A stretch of DNA of 64,000 nucleotides from positions 28,538 through 92,537 of the forward strand of contig JAVCCL010000020.1 in assembly GCA_030765505.1 (NCBI GenBank), given 5' to 3'. Both the position numbers and the translations under genes were made by a program. Position 1 is the stretch's first letter, and each line of letters opens with the position of its first letter. The notes beneath the pieces were generated by a model. That model was not told where the DNA came from. It made no database searches and saw only the letters and a program-made list of their open reading frames with translations. This stretch comes from Candidatus Kaelpia imicola (GTDB taxonomy: Bacteria; Omnitrophota; Gorgyraeia; Kaelpiales; Kaelpiaceae). This document shows positions 4,974 through 31,107 of the stretch, one piece after another.

Positions 4974-6290
4974 GTGGAACATCAGCATACTATTTCAAAA
5001 GATGCAGCTATCTCGGGGGTAGGTCTTCATACAGATGAGAGAGTTAATTTAAAGATTAAGCCTGGAGAGGTTGATAGCGGAATAACTTTTAGAAGAATAG
5101 ATATAGAGAGTTCTCCTCTTATACCTGCTCACATCTCGCATGTTCTAGATTTGACTTTAAGTCTTAGGCGTACGTCTATTGGCATTGATAATATAGAGAT
5201 TCATACAATAGAACATCTTATGGCTTCTTTGGCAGCCTGTAAGATAGATAATGTCTTAGTTGAGATAGATGGTGTTGAGGTTCCAGGTTTAGACGGAAGT
5301 GCTCTGCCTTTTATTGAAAAGATAAAAAATGCAGGCATAGTTAAGCAGAATGCAACAAGGAAGACTTATCGACTTAAAGAACCTATTTTAGTTGAAGATG
5401 GAGAAGCCTCCCTGATGGCTTTTCCCAGCAATAACTTAAATATCTCTTACCTTCTGAATTATGATCATCCTCAGCTTAAAACCCAATATATAAGACATGT
5501 TTTAGATGAGGGAACATTTAAAGATGAGATTGCTCCCAGCAGAACATTCTGTTTAGAGGAAGAGGCTGAAAAATTAACGGAGATGGGCTTAGGTAAGGGT
5601 GCTAATTATGACAATACGCTAGTTGTAACTGATTCAGGTGTTATAGAAAATCAATATAGAATAGAAGATGAGCCTGCAAGGCATAAGGTTCTAGATTTAA
5701 TAGGCGATCTTTATCTCGTAGGTTGTAAGTTGGAGGCTAATATAGTAGGAATAAAGAGCGGCCATCCTTTAAATATAAGGATGGTTAGAAGAATAGAACA
5801 GCAGATCAAAAGGTTTCAGCAAGCCGGGATACATAGGGGCGGATTAAAAGAGTTTGAGCTACCTTTGGGGGTGGAAGAGATAAAGCAGATACTTCCTCAT
5901 AGAGATCCTTTTCTTTTTATAGATAGTATCATAGAGATAGAAGAGGGCAAGCGTGCTGTGGGGATTAAAAAGTTGGCTTTAGACGAGTACTTCTTTAAGG
6001 GTCATTTCCCAGGGCGGCCGGTTATGCCGGGAGTGTTAATAGTTGAGGCGATGGCTCAGGTTTCAGGTGTATTGATGTTAATCCAAAAGCAACATAGAGG
6101 AAAACTTGCTTTCTTTATGGGTGTTGATAAGGTTAGATTTAGAAGGCCGGTTCTTCCTGGAGATCAATTGTATCTTGAAGCTGAAGTTGGTCGATTAAGG
6201 ACAAAGACTGGTGAGATGCATGCAAGAGCATTGGTTAACGGCAAGGTCGCGGCTGAAGCATCGCTGCTCTTTGCTTTAATTGAAAAATAG
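4974..6290 (+). CDS. lpxC/fabZ: Bifunctional LpxC/FabZ fusion: UDP-3-O-acyl-GlcNAc deacetylase (N-terminal) fused to 3-hydroxyacyl-ACP dehydratase (C-terminal).
   Basis: N-terminal roughly 285 aa are LpxC-like (SGVGLHTDERVNLKIKPGE, HKVLDLIGDLYL). C-terminal roughly 145 aa are a FabZ hot-dog domain (HRDPFLFIDSI..., FFKGHFPGRPVMPGVLIVEAMAQ). Confidence 0.85.
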   Translation: MEHQHTISKDAAISGVGLHTDERVNLKIKPGEVDSGITFRRIDIESSPLIPAHISHVLDLTLSLRRTSIGIDNIEIHTIEHLMASLAACKIDNVLVEIDGVEVPGLDGSALPFIEKIKNAGIVKQNATRKTYRLKEPILVEDGEASLMAFPSNNLNISYLLNYDHPQLKTQYIRHVLDEGTFKDEIAPSRTFCLEEEAEKLTEMGLGKGANYDNTLVVTDSGVIENQYRIEDEPARHKVLDLIGDLYLVGCKLEANIVGIKSGHPLNIRMVRRIEQQIKRFQQAGIHRGGLKEFELPLGVEEIKQILPHRDPFLFIDSIIEIEEGKRAVGIKKLALDEYFFKGHFPGRPVMPGVLIVEAMAQVSGVLMLIQKQHRGKLAFFMGVDKVRFRRPVLPGDQLYLEAEVGRLRTKTGEMHARALVNGKVAAEASLLFALIEK

Positions 6291-7914: not shown

Positions 7915-9798
7915 ATGTTAAGCTCTCAAAAATTGTACGATACTATTGTTGTCGGTGCTGGTCATGCAGGTATTGAAGCTGCTCTGGCATCTGCTCGTAT
8001 GGGTTCTGAAACACTTCTTTTAACTATGAGCATAGCAAATATTGCCCAGATGTCTTGTAATCCTGCAATAGGAGGGGTAGGCAAGGGTCAGCTTGTCAAG
8101 GAGATTGATGCCCTCGGCGGTGAGATGGCAAAAGCTATAGATGAAGCTGGAATACAGTTTAGAATCTTAAATTCTTCAAAAGGTGCAGCAGTTCGCTCTT
8201 CCCGGGCTCAGGCAGATAAGGTGAGGTATAGTCTCTATATGAGAAGAGTGCTTGAAGGACAAGATAATTTAGATATAAGAGAAGCTAAAGTAGTAAGCCT
8301 TATAGTAAAAGATAAGAGCGTTAAAGGTGTTCTAACGGAAGATTCTGTTGAGTTTAAGGCTAAGACTGTAATTTTGACTCCGGGAACATTCTTAAATGGT
8401 TTAATACATATAGGATTGGATAGCTATTTTTCAGGGAGGATGGGTGAAGGGGCAAGCTTAGCGCTCTCTGAAAATCTTAAAGAATTGGGTTTTGAGATAG
8501 GAAGATTTAAAACGGGTACACCTGCGAGAATCTATAAAAATTCAATAGATTTTTCTAAGATGCAAGTTCAACATGGCGATTATCCGATACCGTTTTTTTC
8601 ATTCTGGACTAAAAATAAAGAATTGGAGCAGATTGACTGTTTTCTGACTTATACAAATAAGGCAACTCATGAGATAATCAGGGATAATTTGGATAGATCT
8701 CCTCTATATTCAGGCCGTATTAAAGCAACAGGAGTGAGGTATTGCCCGTCTATTGAAGATAAGGTAGTCAAGTTTCCGCATCACGAGCGCCATCTGGTCT
8801 TTTTAGAACCTGAAGGTCTTCAGACAGATGAATATTACCCCAACGGAATCTCAAACTCTCTCCCTATAGATCTACAGATTAAAATGGTGAAAACTATTCC
8901 AGGTTTAGAGAGGGCTGAGTTTGCAAAGCCGGCATACGGAATAGAACATGATTATATAGATCCGACTCAGTTATATCCGACATTAGAGACAAAGCTGATT
9001 AAAAATCTTTACCTTGCCGGGCAGATTAACGGAACTACTGGCTATGAAGAAGCAGCAGCTCAGGGACTTATGGCGGGAGTGAATGCAGCTTTAAGGGTTA
9101 AAGGTAAGGCTGATTTTATCCTAGATAGGAGTCAGTCCTATATCGGGGTTTTGATAGACGAGCTTGTTACTAAGGGTACAGATGAGCCTTTCAGGATGAT
9201 GACTTCCCGGGTTGAATTTAGATTGCTATTGAGGGAGGATAATGCTGTTTTAAGGTTAAGCGAATTTGGTTATAAGTTAGATTTGCTTACCAAGGAGAAG
9301 TATAAAGATGTTTTAGGTTTTAAAGATAGAATAGCAGAGGCAGGGGAATATTTGAAAAGGAATAGAATAAGAACTGAAATATTAGGAGAGAAGATGCCTT
9401 CGTTAGGAATTTTAAACTCAAGGCAGTCTTTAAACTACGAGAGTTTACTACGGCGGCCTGAAATCGATTTTAATCATATTAAACTATTGGATGATAAGAT
9501 TGCTGGATTTGATGACAATATTTTAAATCAGATAGAGATAGAGCTAAAATATGAAGGCTATATTAAAAGACAGTTTAAGCAGGTTGAAGAGTTTAGAAAG
9601 ATTGAGAACATAAAGCTGTCATTTGATTTAAATTATAAGAATATGTCCGGATTGTCATTAGAGGCAAAAGAGAAGTTAAATAAGCTTAAACCTCTGAGTT
9701 TAGGGCAGGCATCGCGTATCCCGGGTATTACACCTGCAGCCATTGCGTGCCTTATGGTCTATTTAAAGAAAAATAAATCATGGAAGGAAAAGAATTAG
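7915..9798 (+). CDS. mnmG: tRNA uridine-5-carboxymethylaminomethyl modification enzyme MnmG (GidA).
   Basis: FAD-binding N-terminus ([23 protein letters not shown]). Roughly 625 aa. C-terminal GidA-associated region. The probable start is the ATG at 7915, not the upstream ATG at 7888 used in the ORF track. Confidence 0.9.
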
Positions 9799-10451
9799 TA
9801 AATAAATTAGAGAGTTTTATTTTGGGAGAGAGAGCAGCTGTTTTTGGAACAGCTTTTGTTGAAAGTATAAAATCCGAGTTCAAACTATCACAAGGTGAGA
9901 TGGAAGGCTTAGATCACGCTATAAGTTTTGGTTTTAAATTATCCAGCGCGGTTTTAGATGGTATTATTGAATACCCTACAAAATTATATTTTCATCACTA
10001 TAGGATGGTTAATATGTTTTTAGACCAGCTCTCCTTAAAGGTTGTTAGAATAATCGAAAAAGAGGGTTTTAGGGCTCTAGCCATACCGGCTTCACAGATT
10101 GTCGATTGGAAGAGACAGACTTCTTATCTATCGCATAAAAAGGTAGCCTATCTATCTGGTTTAGGCTGGATAGGCAGAAACAATCTCTTGGTTCACCCTG
10201 AGTTTGGTTCTCAATTGAGGTTTGCTACTGTTTTAACCAGCCTTAAACTGCCTTCTAAAGAGCCTCTAGGATTTGGCTGCGGAGATTGTAGGCTATGTAT
10301 CTCCTCTTGTCCTGTTGGAGCGATAACAGATGATCCAGAAGACTTTAATCACTTGGCCTGTTATAATAAACTAGATGAGTTTAAAAAGAAGAACTTTGTA
10401 GGTCAACATATCTGTGGAATATGTGTTAAGGTATGCAGAGTAAAGGCATAA
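9780..10451 (+). CDS. QueG-like 4Fe-4S protein (epoxyqueuosine reductase family, short form of 223 aa).
   Basis: The motif [31 protein letters not shown] resembles the QueG core. Ferredoxin-type cysteine cluster [16 protein letters not shown]. Directly downstream of the tRNA-modification gene mnmG. The protein is much shorter than canonical QueG (approximately 380 aa). Confidence 0.45.
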
Positions 10452-14577: not shown

Positions 14578-15558
14578 ATGGCTTGGGATAGATTTTTAGA
14601 TCAAGATAAGATAATCTCTATACTTAGGTCTTATATAGAGTTAGATCAAGTATCAGGCAGCTTTATATTTTCAGGATTAAAAGGGGTCGGCAAGTTCTCT
14701 ATCGCTAAAGAGTTCTCTAAATCTGTTAATTGTTTACAAAGTGCTGGAGATAGCTGTTCCGTTTGTCAGAACTGTGTTCAGATAGAGAGAGAATTTCATC
14801 CCGACTTTTATATTGTTCGTCCAGCAGAGAAATCCGGTGAGATAACCATTGATATGATAAGAGAGTTGCAGAGGTTCTTGAATCTCTCTCCCGCAAATGC
14901 GAGAAAGAAGTTTTTTATAATAGATCAGGCTGAGAAGATGAATATTGAGTCAGCCAATGCATTTCTTAAAAGCCTTGAAGAACCTCCTTTAGATTCTGTT
15001 ATTATCCTGGTTAGTTCAAGGCCGGGTGCTCTCATTGCTACTATAAAATCCCGCTGTAAAGAGTTGAAATTTAGACCCTTAAGTAAGAAGACTATAGGGA
15101 TACTGCTGAGAGATAAGTTTGAATTGACTATAGAGGAATCAGCAAGAATATCGGCTCTCTCTGAAGGCGGATTAGATTTCGATTTAGAGGGCATAGATTT
15201 AACCGGTATTGAGACAACTTTAAAAGAGTTTTTCCGCTTCCCGCGGTTTAAAGAGAGAGGAGATAAAAACCTTTTGCATCAGCAGAGGGAGAGGTTAAAA
15301 GATAAGATTAGAATTCTGATTCTTTATATTAGAGATATTCTGTGTATAGTCAATGAAGTCGATTCTCTATCAGTTTTTCCAAGTTTAGACAATAGAGATA
15401 AGGTTATAAATATTGAGTCCAAAGATTTAATTGAAAAAATAGATAAATTGGAGTATCTTTACAGTGCGTTAGGTTCAAACGTAAATCCGGATTTTATCTA
15501 TAAAGTAGTTAGAAATTTATATAAGGAGGTTGAGCTTAAAAGTGAAATACACAGTTAA
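14578..15558 (+). CDS. holB: DNA polymerase III delta-prime subunit HolB.
   Basis: AAA+-like N-terminus with a degenerate Walker A (FSGLKGVGKFSIAKEFSKSV). Zinc-module cysteines (CSVCQNC). Synteny with PSP1/ricT downstream, as in Firmicutes holB-yaaT. Confidence 0.8.
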   Translation: MAWDRFLDQDKIISILRSYIELDQVSGSFIFSGLKGVGKFSIAKEFSKSVNCLQSAGDSCSVCQNCVQIEREFHPDFYIVRPAEKSGEITIDMIRELQRFLNLSPANARKKFFIIDQAEKMNIESANAFLKSLEEPPLDSVIILVSSRPGALIATIKSRCKELKFRPLSKKTIGILLRDKFELTIEESARISALSEGGLDFDLEGIDLTGIETTLKEFFRFPRFKERGDKNLLHQQRERLKDKIRILILYIRDILCIVNEVDSLSVFPSLDNRDKVINIESKDLIEKIDKLEYLYSALGSNVNPDFIYKVVRNLYKEVELKSEIHS

Positions 15559-16354
15559 TGTGCGTTTAAGAGAAGCAGGCAATGCAATAAATGGCTTTTG
15601 CGAAGATATCCCTCTCTTAGCCGGAGATATCGTTATTCTTCAGGTAGAGAGAGGCTATGATTACGGTGAGGTTATTTCCGACCCCCATCAGATGAGTAGT
15701 GATAAAGATATAAAAGGAGCTTATAAGGTTATAAGAAAAGCAACCAGGGAAGACTTTCTGCAAATAAAAAGAAATGAGAGAAAATCCAGAAGTGCTGTCA
15801 GAATATTTGAAAGAAAATTACGCCAACATAAGCTGGAGATGAAACTTGTTGGAGCAGAGTATGCGTTTGACAGGACAAAGATAATTTTCTATTTTACAGC
15901 TGAGGAGAGGATAGATTTCCGCTCCCTCGTGCGTGATCTGGCCAAAATATTCAAAACCCGCATAGAGCTTAGACAGATAGGTGTTAGAGATGAAGCTAAG
16001 ATATTGGGTGGTTACGGTGTTTGCGGCAGACCGCTCTGTTGTGCTTCATTTTTAAAAATGTTTTCTCCTGTCACTGTTAAGTTTGCTAAAGAGCAAAACC
16101 TTCCCATGAATCCGAGTAAGATATCCGGTGTCTGCGGGAGGCTGATGTGTTGTTTAGGTTTTGAGAAAAAGTTCTACGATCAGGCACTAAAAACAATGCC
16201 TAAGATAGGACAGAAAATAGATTTAGAAGACGGTAAGGCCAAGGTCATAGATGTAAATTATATTACAGGATTTACCAAGGTTGAATGTGAAGACGGAAGG
16301 ATTAAGAAGATAGACTTTAGAGATAAAAAGCCTGTTTCTAAAAATGAAAAATAA
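15530..16354 (+). CDS. ricT: PSP1 C-terminal domain protein (RicT/YaaT family).
   Basis: Conserved PSP1 cysteine-rich segment GGYGVCGRPLCCASFLKMFSPVTVKFAKEQNLPMNPSKISGVCGRLMCCLGFE. Located after holB. Confidence 0.8.
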   Translation: MSLKVKYTVNVRLREAGNAINGFCEDIPLLAGDIVILQVERGYDYGEVISDPHQMSSDKDIKGAYKVIRKATREDFLQIKRNERKSRSAVRIFERKLRQHKLEMKLVGAEYAFDRTKIIFYFTAEERIDFRSLVRDLAKIFKTRIELRQIGVRDEAKILGGYGVCGRPLCCASFLKMFSPVTVKFAKEQNLPMNPSKISGVCGRLMCCLGFEKKFYDQALKTMPKIGQKIDLEDGKAKVIDVNYITGFTKVECEDGRIKKIDFRDKKPVSKNEK

Positions 16355-17903
16355 GAAATTCTGCATAACCACTCCGCTCTATTATGTAAATGGAGAGCCT
16401 CATATCGGTCACTCCTATACCAATGTAGCAGCAGATGTTTTAGCTCGTTATATGAGGATGAAGGGAGAGAGCGTATATTTTTTGACTGGCACCGATGAGC
16501 ATGGCCAGAAGATTGAGAGAGCAGCCAAAGAGTCAGGTTCGGATGATGTTAAGGTTTTCTGTGACTCAATAGTAAATAAGTTTATTGACCTCTGGGGTAT
16601 TTTAAATATATCTTACGATGATTTTATTCGTACAACAGAGTTTCGCCATGAAGAGACGGTCAAGAAAATTCTCGGCTCTCTTTATAAGGAGGGGTATATC
16701 TATGAATCAAACTACGAAGGTTGGTATTGCATGCCCTGTGAGACTTTCTGGATAGAGTCTCAGGTTGAGAACAAGCTTTGCCCTGACTGTGGAAGAGAGT
16801 TAGAATTTATAACCGAGAAAAACTATTTTTTAAAAATGTCAGAGCATAGAGATTGGCTTAAAAACTACCTGCAAGACAATAAAGGTTTTATCTTGCCTCA
16901 GTCACGTTTTAATGAGGTTATCTCTTTTCTTGAAAACCCATTGGCGGATCTATGCATCTCCCGCCCTAAAGAGAGGGTTTCATGGGGAATAGCTATCCCC
17001 TTTGATAACGATTATGTTACTTATGTCTGGTTTGAGGCTCTGCTTAACTATATAACAGCCCCAGGTTTTTTAAGAGAAGATGATAATTTCGAGAGTATTT
17101 GGCCTGCAGATGTGCAATTTATGGCAAAGGATATTTTGCGTTACCATGCTGTCTATTGGCCGATAATGCTGCATATGTTAGGGTTGGAACTTCCTAAGAT
17201 GGTATTCTCTCATGGTTGGTGGTTAGTAGAGAAGGAAAAGAGTATTGATAAGATATCTAAATCAAAGGGTAATGTGGTTGATCCCAGGGAGTTGGTCAAT
17301 AAATATAGCACTGATGCTTTGAGGTATTTTTTACTTAGAGAGGTTCCTTTTGGAATGGATGGGAACTTTTCAGAAAGCAGTTTTATAAAACGGGTCAACT
17401 CGGACTTGGCTAATGACTTCGGAAATCTTATTTTCAGAACTTTGAATATGATAGTAAAATATTATGACGGTATTATTCCGAAAAACGAGAGAGCTTTTGA
17501 TAACTGCGATGAGTCTTTCTCTTCTAAAATTGCGTCAATCTATGAAAAGATTGAAGAGTTCATGAAGAGAGTTGATTATCAGAATGTTTTAGAGACTATA
17601 TGGGAGTTAATAAGTGCAGCAAATAAATATATCGAGTTAAAAGCCCCCTGGAAGCTTAAAAAAGAAGACCCCGATGAGCTTGCCTATGTTATATATACTC
17701 TCTCTGATGTAATAAGGATTGTTTTGGTAGCACTTACTCCTTTTATTCCGGCATCTACTCAGAAGGCATGGTCTTATTTCGGGTATAAGGATAAGGTTGA
17801 AGAACATAGTTATTCTGAAATATCATTATGGGGCAAAATCCCTTTTAATCAGATTGTTGAAAAAGGAGAGCCTCTATTTCCCAGGATAGAGGTAGAAAAG
17901 TAA
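16344..17903 (+). CDS. metG: Methionine--tRNA ligase MetG (short form without the C-terminal tRNA-binding appendix).
   Basis: Class I HIGH motif (EPHIGHSYTNV), KMSKS motif (KISKSKGN) and a CPDC zinc knuckle. 519 aa. Confidence 0.9.
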   Translation: MKNKKFCITTPLYYVNGEPHIGHSYTNVAADVLARYMRMKGESVYFLTGTDEHGQKIERAAKESGSDDVKVFCDSIVNKFIDLWGILNISYDDFIRTTEFRHEETVKKILGSLYKEGYIYESNYEGWYCMPCETFWIESQVENKLCPDCGRELEFITEKNYFLKMSEHRDWLKNYLQDNKGFILPQSRFNEVISFLENPLADLCISRPKERVSWGIAIPFDNDYVTYVWFEALLNYITAPGFLREDDNFESIWPADVQFMAKDILRYHAVYWPIMLHMLGLELPKMVFSHGWWLVEKEKSIDKISKSKGNVVDPRELVNKYSTDALRYFLLREVPFGMDGNFSESSFIKRVNSDLANDFGNLIFRTLNMIVKYYDGIIPKNERAFDNCDESFSSKIASIYEKIEEFMKRVDYQNVLETIWELISAANKYIELKAPWKLKKEDPDELAYVIYTLSDVIRIVLVALTPFIPASTQKAWSYFGYKDKVEEHSYSEISLWGKIPFNQIVEKGEPLFPRIEVEK

Positions 17904-17906
17904 TAA

Positions 17907-19280
17907 ATGTATCTTGTCGATACTCATTCTCATCTCTGGCATCCGGAGTTTAAATTTGATTTAAAAAGAGTGGTCAATAGAGCTAAAGAAAAGAGTGTTG
18001 AATACATAGTTGTATTAGGCGTTGATTTAGATACCTCTCTTAAATCCCTCTCTATTGCAAGAAAGTTCAAGAATATCTATGCTGCTGTAGGGTCTCACCC
18101 GCATAATGTAAAATCTTTTAAAGATAGAGATCTGCTGATTTTAAAGAAGCTGCTCAGGAGAAAGAAGGTTGTTGCTTTTGGGGAGATAGGCCTTGATTAC
18201 TACAGGAAGAGTTCAACTTCTAAGAACCAGATATCAATGTTGGAGAGACTGCTTGGACTATGGCAGGATTTTAACCATCTTCCGCTTGTTATACATAATA
18301 GAGATGCTGATGAGGATATATTATCAGTCCTGGATAACATAAAAAGATTTTCGCCTAAGGTTATTATGCATTGTTTCTCCGGAGATATTGATTTTTTAAA
18401 AAAGTGTCTAAAGAGAGGTTTCTATATATCCTATGCTACCAATCTGACGTTTAATCGAGATTTAAAAAAACTTATTAAGCATACACCATTGGATAGACTA
18501 TTGCTTGAGACAGACTCTCCCTATCTTGCGCCTTTAACAAGGAGAGGCGGTAGAAATGAACCTGCATTTTTAAAAGATTCTTTAGATATTGTTTTAAAAG
18601 AGAGATCGGTAACTGAAGAAGATCTCAGGCGGTCTCTAGCATTAAATTCTAAGAGGGTGTTCGGTATAGGGAGCATCAAGAGAGAACCCAAGTATCTGTA
18701 TAGATATAAGGATGGTCTATATATAAACCTTACAAATAGATGCAGCAACAGGTGTTATTTTTGCAGCGGTTTGGTCAGTGATTATTTTGCGGGGCATAAT
18801 TTAAGACTTAAGAGAGAACCTAAAATAGGCGAGGTTTTAAGGGCTATTGAAAAAGAGAAAGGATTTGATGAAGTTGCTTTTTGCGGCATAGGAGAACCTT
18901 TCTTTAAGTTTAGAGAGTTAAAAGAGATAGCTAAGGGTTTAAAAAGCAAGGGTTATAGAGTCCGCGTTATTACTAATGGATGCGGTAATTTAATCTCAAA
19001 AAGAAATCTCTTGCCCGAACTTAAAGGCTGTATCGACAGCATATCTATCAGTCTGAATGTCGAGGATAAAGATAAGTATAATTCTTTCTGTAATCCCGAT
19101 TTTGGAGATGATACTTTTAACAGAGTGATAGATTTTATTAAAGAGTCAAAAAAATATATACCTTGGGTAGAAGTAAGTTTTTTAGATATAGAGGGGTTCT
19201 CCCTTGAAAAAGCCAGGAAAATAACTGATGATTTGGGAGTTAAATGCAGAGTAAGGGCCTATAATTTGATTAAAGCCTGA
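17907..19280 (+). CDS. Fusion protein: TatD-family metal-dependent hydrolase (N-terminal, approximately 260 aa) plus a compact radical SAM domain (C-terminal, approximately 195 aa).
   Basis: TatD signatures (LVDTHSHL, histidines of GSHPHNV, FGEIGLDY, ETDSPYL). The C-terminal half has a CX3CX2C radical SAM cluster motif (NRCSNRCYFCSG) and a glycine-rich SAM motif (AFCGIGEPF). Confidence 0.8.
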   Translation: MYLVDTHSHLWHPEFKFDLKRVVNRAKEKSVEYIVVLGVDLDTSLKSLSIARKFKNIYAAVGSHPHNVKSFKDRDLLILKKLLRRKKVVAFGEIGLDYYRKSSTSKNQISMLERLLGLWQDFNHLPLVIHNRDADEDILSVLDNIKRFSPKVIMHCFSGDIDFLKKCLKRGFYISYATNLTFNRDLKKLIKHTPLDRLLLETDSPYLAPLTRRGGRNEPAFLKDSLDIVLKERSVTEEDLRRSLALNSKRVFGIGSIKREPKYLYRYKDGLYINLTNRCSNRCYFCSGLVSDYFAGHNLRLKREPKIGEVLRAIEKEKGFDEVAFCGIGEPFFKFRELKEIAKGLKSKGYRVRVITNGCGNLISKRNLLPELKGCIDSISISLNVEDKDKYNSFCNPDFGDDTFNRVIDFIKESKKYIPWVEVSFLDIEGFSLEKARKITDDLGVKCRVRAYNLIKA

Positions 19281-26314: not shown

Positions 26315-27766
26315 ATGATAACTTCTCAGATAGAGAAAATAGATAATTATAGGTGGCGTATACCGAGAGATTATCAGAAAGGTATGAGAGTTCCGGGGAT
26401 AGTCTACGCCACTGAGGATATGTTTGATAAAGCTATAGACAGTCAGGCCTTTAAGCAGGTTGCCAATGTTGCCCATCTTCCTGGGATAGTTAAATACTCT
26501 CTGGCCATGCCCGATATCCACTGGGGTTATGGTTTTCCAATAGGAGGGGTTGCAGCAACCGATCCTGACAATGGCGGTGTTATCTCACCCGGTGGAGTTG
26601 GGTATGATATAAACTGCGGCTTAAGGCTTTTACGTTCGGATATAGAGTATAAGGATATTGAAAAAGAGGTTATCAATTTGGTTTCATCTATCTATTCCTC
26701 TGTTCCTGCAGGAGTTGGCTCAAAAGGTGATGTCAGATTGTCCAGAAAAGAGGAGAGGAGTCTTTTATTAAAGGGTGCAAGGTGGACTGTTGAGAAAGGA
26801 TTTGGAGTAAAAGAAGATCTAACATACTGCGAAGAGAATGGTCAGATAGAGGGAGCAGATCCTGATAAAGTAAGCGATAGAGCATATGAGAGAGGTAGAG
26901 ACCAGTGTGGAACTCTTGGTTCCGGGAATCATTTCTTAGAGATTCAGGTGATAGATGAGATATACGATGAGTATTCTGCTGATAGGTTAGGACTAAAGAG
27001 AGGTGCTGTCACAGTAATGATCCATACCGGTTCTCGCGGGTTTGGTTACCAGGTCTGCGATGATTATTTAAAGACCATGGTTAAAGCAGTCAGTAAATAC
27101 GATATAAGCATTCCAGATAGACAGCTCGCTTCCGCTCCCATTAATTCTAGGGAAGCGAAAGATTATATCGGGGCTATGAGATCTGCTGCTAACTATGCCT
27201 GGGCTAATCGGCAATATATTACTTATTTAATAAGGACTGTTTTTGAAAAGGTCTTTGCTCAGAGCTGGGACTCTTTGGGACTCAATTTAGTATATGATGT
27301 TGCTCATAATATTGCAAAATTCGAAAAACATATTGTAGATGGAAAGAAGAAAATATTATGTGTTCACAGAAAAGGTGCGACACGTGCATTCGGACCTGAT
27401 CATCCTGAGATACCGGAAAAATATAAAGATATAGGTCAACCTGTGATTATACCCGGAGATATGGGTACGGCCTCCTATCTTCTGCTTGGAACTGAATCTG
27501 CAATGAGAGAGAGTTTTGGTTCAACCTGCCATGGGGCAGGCAGGGTTATGTCCAGAACGGAAGCGATTAAAAAAGGCAGGAATAGATCTATTAGTAAAGA
27601 GCTTAAAGATAGAGGAATATTTGTTTTATCTAGAGGCAAGAAGACATTGATTGAAGAGATGCCTGATGCATATAAAGATATAGACCAGGTGGTTGATGTT
27701 GTTGTGTCGGCGGGAATATCAAAAAAAGTTTGTAGAATGAGACCGGTTGGTGTTGTTAAAGGGTAG
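26315..27766 (+). CDS. rtcB: RNA-splicing ligase RtcB.
   Basis: GYDINCGLRL, GSGNHFLEIQ and HTGSRGFG motifs of RtcB. 483 aa. Confidence 0.9.
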   Translation: MITSQIEKIDNYRWRIPRDYQKGMRVPGIVYATEDMFDKAIDSQAFKQVANVAHLPGIVKYSLAMPDIHWGYGFPIGGVAATDPDNGGVISPGGVGYDINCGLRLLRSDIEYKDIEKEVINLVSSIYSSVPAGVGSKGDVRLSRKEERSLLLKGARWTVEKGFGVKEDLTYCEENGQIEGADPDKVSDRAYERGRDQCGTLGSGNHFLEIQVIDEIYDEYSADRLGLKRGAVTVMIHTGSRGFGYQVCDDYLKTMVKAVSKYDISIPDRQLASAPINSREAKDYIGAMRSAANYAWANRQYITYLIRTVFEKVFAQSWDSLGLNLVYDVAHNIAKFEKHIVDGKKKILCVHRKGATRAFGPDHPEIPEKYKDIGQPVIIPGDMGTASYLLLGTESAMRESFGSTCHGAGRVMSRTEAIKKGRNRSISKELKDRGIFVLSRGKKTLIEEMPDAYKDIDQVVDVVVSAGISKKVCRMRPVGVVKG

Positions 27767-30621: not shown

Positions 30622-31107
30622 TTAATTTTTGCTTGGAGAGATAATCTCTGTTTTAGAAAGATAGTTCCAGCGCCAGGCTTCTTGGGCGATAGATTTAAGA
30701 TGAGATATCGAGCCAGGTTGATATTCTATCTTCCAGTCTCTAATTGTCCCTTCTTCACTAAGTTCACCGATTGGAGTATATGGAGAGTTTAAAATATTGC
30801 GTAAGTTTTCGTCTTTGATATCAATTGTTAAATTACCTCTTTTTAATAAAGCAGAGCCAATATATTTACCCTGCTCTAGGCTGTCGGGTTCTAATTCCCA
30901 GAAATCTATCTTTATAATCCTATAATTATCAAATTTCTCTACTATTGAATGAAGATTTTTCTGTATCTCGATTTTATTTTCAGCTAAGCTTGCTAAAATA
31001 TTAGCAACTTTGACCCGTTCAGCAGATATTAAGTCTATAAAATTAAGAAGAGCTATATATACTGCTAAAAGGAATGCTATCGACAATATGTTGAATTTTC
31101 GTACCAT
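30622..31107 (-). CDS. Hypothetical membrane-anchored protein (161 aa) with one N-terminal TM helix.
   Basis: ORF on the opposite strand to its neighbours. N-terminal hydrophobic helix (ILSIAFLLAVYIALLNFIDLI). No recognisable motifs. Confidence 0.45.
   Translation of the reverse strand: MVRKFNILSIAFLLAVYIALLNFIDLISAERVKVANILASLAENKIEIQKNLHSIVEKFDNYRIIKIDFWELEPDSLEQGKYIGSALLKRGNLTIDIKDENLRNILNSPYTPIGELSEEGTIRDWKIEYQPGSISHLKSIAQEAWRWNYLSKTEIISPSKN

Follow-up and report, generated by a model that had tools for sequence, protein, structure and literature searches.

What does the gene at positions 17907..19280 of this part of the Candidatus Kaelpia imicola genome encode, and what might its product do? 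The stretch of DNA analysed, called the window below, comprises 64,000 nucleotides of contig JAVCCL010000020.1. A preliminary description of it had proposed that the gene joins a TatD hydrolase in frame to a compact radical S-adenosylmethionine (SAM) domain, and that the two activities work on a common substrate, plausibly in the repair or modification of nucleic acids. Our analysis showed that the product is, almost certainly, a single-polypeptide TatD plus radical SAM protein, and that this architecture is a catalogued one. Blending this identity with a far more tentative mechanism, in which the radical SAM half would act on a polynucleotide that the TatD site hydrolyses, we put the probability of the overall explanation at roughly 0.55. 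The gene is made up as follows, each feature being given with its main support.

17907..19280, + strand: whole gene, TatD-radical SAM fusion, 457 amino acids (open reading frame list, translation, NCBI identity)
17916..18665, + strand: TatD domain, residues 4-253, YcfH/YabD-type class II (HxH) binuclear metallohydrolase TIM barrel (Pfam, NCBIfam, Foldseek)
17925..17933, + strand: HxH metal-binding motif, H7-S8-H9 (sequence, fusion alignment)
18666..18695, + strand: inter-domain linker, residues about 254-263 (near-constant length across fused homologues)
18696..19265, + strand: radical SAM domain, residues 264-453, full-length TIGR04038 (tatD_link_rSAM / IPR023821), minimal partial-barrel core (NCBIfam, alignments, model)
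18741..18764, + strand: CX3CX2C [4Fe-4S] cluster motif, C279-SNR-C283-YF-C286 (invariant in alignments)
18879..18899, + strand: FCGIGEP, a GGE-type SAM-binding motif (alignments)

The gene is one unbroken frame of 457 codons from ATG to stop, and all the motifs quoted in the preliminary description (HSHL, SHPHN, FGEIGLDY, ETDSPYL, CSNRCYFC and AFCGIGEPF) are present in its translation. NCBI holds a 100% identical protein (P0268) from Candidatus Kaelpia imicola, Omnitrophota, under the name 'YchF/TatD family DNA exonuclease'. In a hidden Markov model scan, both halves scored above curated cut-offs, well outside anything that chance would give. The TatD half matched PF01026 (TatD_DNase) on residues 4-253 with 236.8 bits against a cut-off of 27, covering model positions 1-253 of 253, and TIGR00010 (YchF/TatD family DNA exonuclease, NCBIfam) with 232.4 bits against 206. 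The second half matched PF04055 (Radical_SAM) on residues 273-419 with 47.8 bits against the Pfam gathering threshold of 29.5, and TIGR04038, the TatD-associated radical SAM family of NCBIfam, on residues 264-453 with 219.6 bits against 129.7, covering model positions 3-192 of 192. The domain limits first proposed, residues 1-260 and about 265-457, agree with these envelopes. A linker of 8-10 residues, essentially constant in length in fused homologues, connects the last TatD helix to the first radical SAM strand. An AlphaFold2 model of the whole protein had a mean predicted local distance difference test score (pLDDT) of 92.9 and a predicted template modelling score (pTM) of 0.88; so high a pTM suggests that, in the model, the two halves hold a defined mutual orientation.

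The single-polypeptide form had been presented as if it were rare or new, and this part of the description did not survive the survey of relatives. We searched 1.84 billion representatives of 50%-identity clusters with phmmer and used the best 150 matches. Both halves were found in 128 of them, 110 being full length (433-572 amino acids, median 462); the closest representative at this clustering level was 49% identical to the query, which is a divergent member. A word-indexed search gave PF01026 together with PF04055 in all 120 best matches. A scan of one genome per species returned at least 600 genomes with a relative, and the closest 80 loci were analysed. TatD and radical SAM lay in one open frame in 74 of these; among the others, the two were adjacent genes in three, the TatD gene lay 3.7 kb away in one, and two had no TatD gene within 4 kb. 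This survey of fused against adjacent forms makes the fusion the dominant one in this clade. Fused forms occurred in Nitrospirota/Thermodesulfovibrionales, in Geobacter sp. AOG1, Trichlorobacter thiogenes and Geomonas anaerohicana, in anammox Planctomycetota, and further in Nitrospinota, Omnitrophota, Zixibacteria, Verrucomicrobiota, Bacteroidota and Terriglobia. The orthologues of Geobacter, Trichlorobacter, Geomonas and Candidatus Kuenenia stuttgartiensis (P0328) have the same architecture and motifs in about 455-471 amino acids and are 44% identical over the full length, differing from the Kaelpia protein in phylum (Planctomycetota or Desulfobacterota as against Omnitrophota).

These counts also bear on whether assembly or gene calling merged two adjacent genes. 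The source is a metagenome-assembled genome, and split adjacent versions do exist in other lineages (L051, L068, L070 and L088), both of which speak for a merger. Against it stand the 110 full-length fused representatives, the 74 independent assemblies with a single frame, the conserved linker, and a domain junction that has no in-frame ATG nearby, the nearest alternative starts being a GTG at codon 251 and a TTG at codon 289. Homologues equal in length can be aligned with it over its whole extent, which excludes a frameshift or two-gene merger, and we leave an artefact a negligible share of the probability.

The architecture is also known to the databases. The NCBIfam title of TIGR04038 is "TatD family nuclease-associated radical SAM protein", which is exactly the occurrence of small radical SAM proteins beside TatD genes that the preliminary description had mentioned. 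Its model type is 'subfamily_domain', and it is therefore expected inside larger proteins. The Kuenenia protein is already named 'putative deoxyribonuclease YcfH / radical SAM domain protein', and the InterPro family name (IPR023821) is cited in a visualisation preprint (bioRxiv 10.1101/2024.11.19.624229). The family is known, its fused form is common and catalogued, and public databases annotate it, so the fusion is not a new finding; it is ordinary for its clade and widespread in anaerobic bacteria. Automated annotation at NCBI gives the fused proteins no fuller name than 'YchF/TatD family DNA exonuclease' or 'TatD family hydrolase'; since such product names show the TatD part alone, genome mining can easily miss the radical SAM half. 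At JGI, even stand-alone radical SAM proteins of about 200 amino acids are mislabelled 'TatD DNase family protein'. We also looked among the longer relatives for other fusion partners that might serve as clues and rejected this line, as they were TatD with insertions plus radical SAM. Two proteins had unusual layouts: P0009 (344 amino acids) combines a partial signal peptidase II, LspA (PF01252), with radical SAM, and P0214 (433 amino acids) combines a UPF0102/YraN-like fragment with TatD and a partial radical SAM domain. Both lie on short contigs and are probably merged or truncated gene calls.

The TatD half has the features of the YcfH/YabD branch. Class II TatD enzymes carry an HxH motif and class I enzymes a (G/A)xN motif (PMC10085689); with H7 and H9 forming HxH, the TatD half therefore falls in class II, with YcfH. 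Its metal ligands H7, H9, E93, H130, H155 and D203 were invariant across 50 fusions. Foldseek superposed it on Staphylococcus aureus TatD (6l25) with a template modelling score normalised to the target (TMt) of 0.95 and a root-mean-square deviation of 1.4 A, on 1j6o with a TMt of 0.92 and on Escherichia coli YcfH (1yix) with a TMt of 0.90; Thermotoga maritima TM0667 was among the solved structures matched. E. coli YcfH, Bacillus subtilis YabD and S. aureus SAV0491 have the same fold (TMt 0.90-0.95) and the same HxH/E/H/H/D ligands, and share with the fusion a genomic place beside metG or holB. They stop at about 255-265 amino acids, whereas the fusion runs on through a linker of some 10 residues into the radical SAM domain. 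Action on polynucleotides is on record for TatD enzymes: E. coli YcfH is a 3'-5' exonuclease on single-stranded DNA and an apurinic/apyrimidinic (AP) endonuclease on double-stranded DNA, and the E. coli tatD/ycfH/yjjV triple mutant is sensitive to H2O2 (PMC10085689).

The radical SAM half matches TIGR04038/IPR023821 end to end, with the invariant YxNxTNRCxxxCxxC and FCGxGEP motifs in common. The Kaelpia protein falls in the fused sub-clade of this family, and many other members are stand-alone proteins of about 200 amino acids. On alignment to these relatives the three cluster cysteines on which the radical SAM call depended are present: C279, C283 and C286 were invariant in the 50 fusions, in 62 mostly stand-alone members and in 110 of 110 full-length representatives. 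F325, C326, G327, G329 and E330 were invariant in the 50 fusions. The sister family TIGR04100 (rSAM_pair_X), of similar length, was matched over model positions 3-197 of 197 with 162.1 bits, below its cut-off of 262, so the domain is not a member of it. A second Fe-S cluster made from extra cysteines was considered and rejected. Two of the candidates are strongly kept in the fusions, C326 being invariant and C395 reaching 98% conservation. The third column (position 436), however, holds Ala here, and stand-alone members do not keep C395, so there is no support for a second cluster across the family.

An AlphaFold2 model of the radical SAM half alone (pLDDT 95.0, pTM 0.91) matched generic cores only, those of BlsE, pyruvate formate-lyase (PFL) activase, NifB, viperin-like enzymes, TYW1 and QueE, at 14-21% identity. 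The solved structural neighbours were all longer, 214-477 amino acids against about 190, with template modelling scores normalised to the query (TMq) of 0.6-0.72. PFL activase, NrdG, QueE and the NifB and viperin cores have in common with it a partial (beta/alpha)6 barrel, a single CX3CX2C, a GGE-type motif and small size; compared with PFL activase-type cores, it is shorter and has no glycyl-radical partner nearby. The domain is a bare core of about 190 residues, and no auxiliary-cluster or substrate-binding extension was found on it. Foldseek structure comparison found no PDB entry that combines TatD and radical SAM domains.

These comparisons touch on the idea that the radical SAM half modifies a free nucleotide, in the manner of viperin or MoaA, with TatD as a phosphoesterase on its product or precursor. 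MoaA, viperin/pVip and NrdG were the best named NCBIfam/PADLOC matches after TIGR04038 and TIGR04100, and viperin-like enzymes with bound CTP were among the closest solved cores (TMq up to 0.72). The scores, however, fell far below the NCBIfam cut-offs (viperin 32.5 against 180 bits, MoaA 33.5 against 325, NrdG2 30.4 against 131), the domain lacks the nucleotide-binding C-terminal extension of viperin and MoaA, and the documented substrates of TatD enzymes are polynucleotides. We therefore consider such small-molecule chemistry improbable.

How the fusion arose can be read in part from its relatives. We built a neighbour-joining tree from the radical SAM domains of 50 fused and 61 stand-alone proteins, two sets drawn from different searches; the fused forms made up one clade and one change of state was enough. 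Since they form a single clade with a fixed linker, the sequences are consistent with one ancient fusion at a conserved ricT-metG-tatD locus. The preliminary description had placed the gene in a conserved holB-ricT-metG-tatD neighbourhood, and these genes do lie directly ahead of it:

14578..15558, + strand: holB-like DNA polymerase III delta' gene (TIGR00678, 171 bits, just below the cut-off of 180.6)
15530..16354, + strand: ricT, YaaT family (profile match; further upstream in 35 of the 80 related loci)
16344..17903, + strand: metG, methionine-tRNA ligase, short form (directly upstream in 39 of the 80 related loci)

The related loci with metG or ricT upstream include both fused and split forms. 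In L051 and L068 the TatD and radical SAM genes are separate and the ricT/metG synteny is still kept, and in L088 the order is metG-TatD-radical SAM with an overlap of 4 nt. Compared with its closest stand-alone relatives, the TatD half of the fusions has D239 as its sole fusion-specific conserved position. Given this upstream synteny in split loci and a TatD half almost free of fusion-specific residues, the radical SAM domain appears to have been appended to an old housekeeping TatD, as the preliminary description had supposed.

The metG stop codon lies 3 nt ahead of the fusion ATG, and a CPBP-family protease gene starts 5 nt past the fusion stop. Together with holB-like and ricT upstream and mtnA, thiL, tsaE and tsaB downstream, they form a tightly packed, co-directional housekeeping array; dnaB, bamA, skp, lpx genes, mnmG and birA lie farther upstream, and alr, ilvD, rtcB, serS and tRNA genes farther downstream. 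A link of the fusion through mtnA to 5'-deoxyadenosine and methionine salvage was considered and dropped: mtnA and the CPBP protease gene were each found downstream in only 4 of the 80 loci, all of them Omnitrophota-like, and for this reason their adjacency is lineage synteny with no functional link.

The same context decides on a role in anti-phage defence or in a mobile system, whether as a Qat-like TatD nuclease or as a module like the prokaryotic viperins. Matches to QatD (82 bits in PADLOC and 93.4 bits for NF041926 in NCBIfam) and to pVip (34 bits in PADLOC) had raised this reading. With the QatD cut-off at 230 bits, such scores reflect generic superfamily similarity. No Qat partner genes were found; the CPBP protease and RicT neighbours match no PADLOC model, and the others are housekeeping genes by NCBIfam and Pfam. 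The metG/ricT synteny is kept across phyla, the gene sits within the co-directional array, and its GC content (0.357) matches that of the window (0.370). In viral contigs the radical SAM family is virtually absent. One IMG/VR contig carries a partial radical SAM relative of 35% identity that ends at the contig edge (L091, 4001..4447), and the other four viral matches are generic radical SAM proteins of 26-33% identity. There is no sign of a mobile or defence island at the fusion locus, and the genomic context effectively refutes the defence reading, which we rate as highly improbable.

The stand-alone members bear on what the radical SAM half does. One follows an ATP-dependent DNA ligase gene at a distance of 23 nt (L086, 1998..3594). 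Another lies between dnaB and a run of yabE-like, ksgA and RNaseH-like genes (L087, 1359..5981), presumably in the slot that yabD (TatD) holds in the Bacillus metS-yabD-yabE-rnmV-ksgA order. Among 14 stand-alone members sampled, four were adjacent to a TatD gene, one was 3.7 kb from it and nine were unlinked. Physical linkage to TatD is the criterion by which the family was named, and this linkage is weaker than the name implies.

The sampling also speaks to the possibility that the TatD half is itself modified or regulated by the radical SAM half, the latter serving either as a maturase or activase that introduces a modification or as a redox- or SAM-sensing Fe-S switch that gates the nuclease under anoxia. 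In size and fold the domain is closest to protein-activating enzymes (PFL activase, 3c8f/8fo0), and the very short fixed linker, with a pTM suggestive of rigid packing on TatD, would suit such a role. On the other side, most sampled stand-alone members are not near a TatD gene, and the TatD half holds no fusion-specific target residue except D239. All SAM-binding motifs are conserved, and for this reason we expect the domain to be catalytic rather than sensory. A role in controlling TatD thus seems distinctly unlikely.

What, then, might the two halves do together? The argument that a fusion of this kind points to a common substrate (Rosetta-stone logic) is reasonable, and a function in nucleic-acid repair or modification is plausible. 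In the mechanism that we propose, the radical SAM half would bind a [4Fe-4S] cluster through C279, C283 and C286 and reductively cleave SAM, and the resulting 5'-deoxyadenosyl radical would abstract a hydrogen atom from a macromolecular substrate, most likely a damaged or blocked nucleic-acid end or a lesion. The TatD half could then process the radical-modified site hydrolytically by the 3'-5' exonuclease and AP-endonuclease activities known from YcfH. The fusion would in this way serve anaerobes as an oxygen-sensitive aid to the TatD-dependent repair of nucleic acids. The bare core with one cluster and no cap or auxiliary domain suggests a macromolecular substrate, and the radical SAM half probably performs a simple hydrogen abstraction on it. 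Among solved radical SAM structures, smaller and more open barrels generally take larger substrates, PFL activase being an example. A mechanistic precedent exists in spore photoproduct lyase, whose radical SAM chemistry is directed at a DNA lesion itself. The likeness is conceptual only: that enzyme is far bigger and carries no fused nuclease, and it was absent from the best 25 of the 35 family matches listed for the fusion. Weak support for nucleic acid as the substrate comes from the DNA-metabolism neighbours in L086 and L087 and from the basic charge of the radical SAM half in fusions (median isoelectric point 8.5, net charge +3); the TatD half of fusions is acidic (median isoelectric point 6.3).

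Several observations weigh against this proposal. The basic charge is modest and is absent from stand-alone members (median isoelectric point 6.9). Nine of the 14 stand-alone members in the sample have no TatD gene near them, so not every member of the family depends on this partner, and the neighbours of the stand-alone members are heterogeneous: csoR-copZ-copA, PFOR, gatCAB, the ATP-dependent DNA ligase gene, and dnaB with yabE-like/ksgA. A sequence profile search of the PDB found no member of the TIGR04038 family, the best matches being RlmN and MoaA with E about 1e-5, and a search of the accessible literature by the family name, or for TatD together with radical SAM, found no functional study. 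Finally, the metG, gatCAB and tsaEB neighbours, together with a report of D-aminoacyl-tRNA deacylase activity in YcfH (a passage of PMC10711561), would fit tRNA about equally well.

This last point leads to a tRNA-centred alternative, in which the TatD half would be a DTD3-like D-aminoacyl-tRNA deacylase or a trimmer of tRNA 3' ends and the radical SAM half would share that aminoacyl-tRNA or 3' end as its substrate, with radical chemistry at, for instance, the aminoacyl moiety or the terminal nucleotide. According to the same passage, which cites Wydau et al. (2009), D-aminoacyl-tRNA is hydrolysed by YcfH and not by TatD, and Synechocystis DTD3 is closest to YcfH. The frequent position of metG directly upstream, one stand-alone member directly after gatCAB, the tsaE, tsaB, mnmG, rtcB and serS genes in the window array, and weak PDB matches that include radical SAM peptide epimerases (YydG/EpeE) all point in this direction. 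The epimerase likeness, however, is a generic core similarity of 20-21% identity, and the tRNA-related neighbours are typical housekeeping clustering. The metG-tatD adjacency is general in bacteria and also exists without the radical SAM gene, as with metS-yabD in B. subtilis, and it therefore says little about the radical SAM half. We regard this alternative as unlikely.

A radical SAM step on a polynucleotide that the TatD site hydrolyses, in the processing of nucleic-acid ends or lesions, thus remains our proposal, and a tentative one, with the odds against it as a specific mechanism. More doubtful is its extension to a radical repair or proofreading enzyme specific to anaerobes. Here a lesion or a blocked 3' end beyond the reach of hydrolytic enzymes, for instance a lesion favoured under anoxia, would be attacked by the radical and then excised by the fused TatD; alternatively, the enzyme could work on mis-acylated tRNA 3' ends. 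The probability left over after the readings set out here belongs to other chemistry.

Some further observations concern the neighbouring genes. The ricT frame starts at a TTG and overlaps holB by 29 nt; the RicT profile begins at residue 33, and the true start may lie downstream. The MetG of the window, 519 amino acids long, corresponds to positions 2-513 of the 648-position PRK12267 model and is without the C-terminal tRNA-binding domain, and the MetG encoded upstream of the split pair in L088 has 649 amino acids with PF01588. A second bifunctional fusion lies at 4974..6290 (+ strand, 438 amino acids), with LpxC (PF03331, residues 4-274) followed by a FabA/FabZ-like dehydratase (PF07977, residues 307-429), in a bamA-skp-lpxD-lpxC/fabZ-lpxA-lpxI cluster. 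An RtcB RNA ligase gene at 26315..27766 (+ strand, 596 bits) is directly upstream of serS and tRNA-Ser. Two open reading frames, 9780..10451 (+ strand, 223 amino acids) and 30622..31107 (- strand, 161 amino acids), had no Pfam match at E<=1e-8; the former sits between mnmG and birA and overlaps each slightly.

As a discovery the fusion adds little, its architecture being held in NCBIfam and InterPro and the fused form being the norm in several anaerobic phyla. Its value lies elsewhere. YcfH/YabD-type TatD enzymes are near-universal, and their physiological substrate and the chemistry of TIGR04038 remain the worthwhile questions. The conserved covalent link between TatD and radical SAM offers an experimental handle on both, and the fusion is present in Geobacter, Trichlorobacter and Geomonas, which are cultivable and genetically tractable. 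If the fusion repairs DNA lesions, it would be, with spore photoproduct lyase as the first, just the second kind of DNA repair by radical SAM chemistry; if it acts on mis-acylated tRNA 3' ends, it would represent a new kind of translational proofreading. Either would at last give the YcfH/YabD branch of TatD a physiological role.

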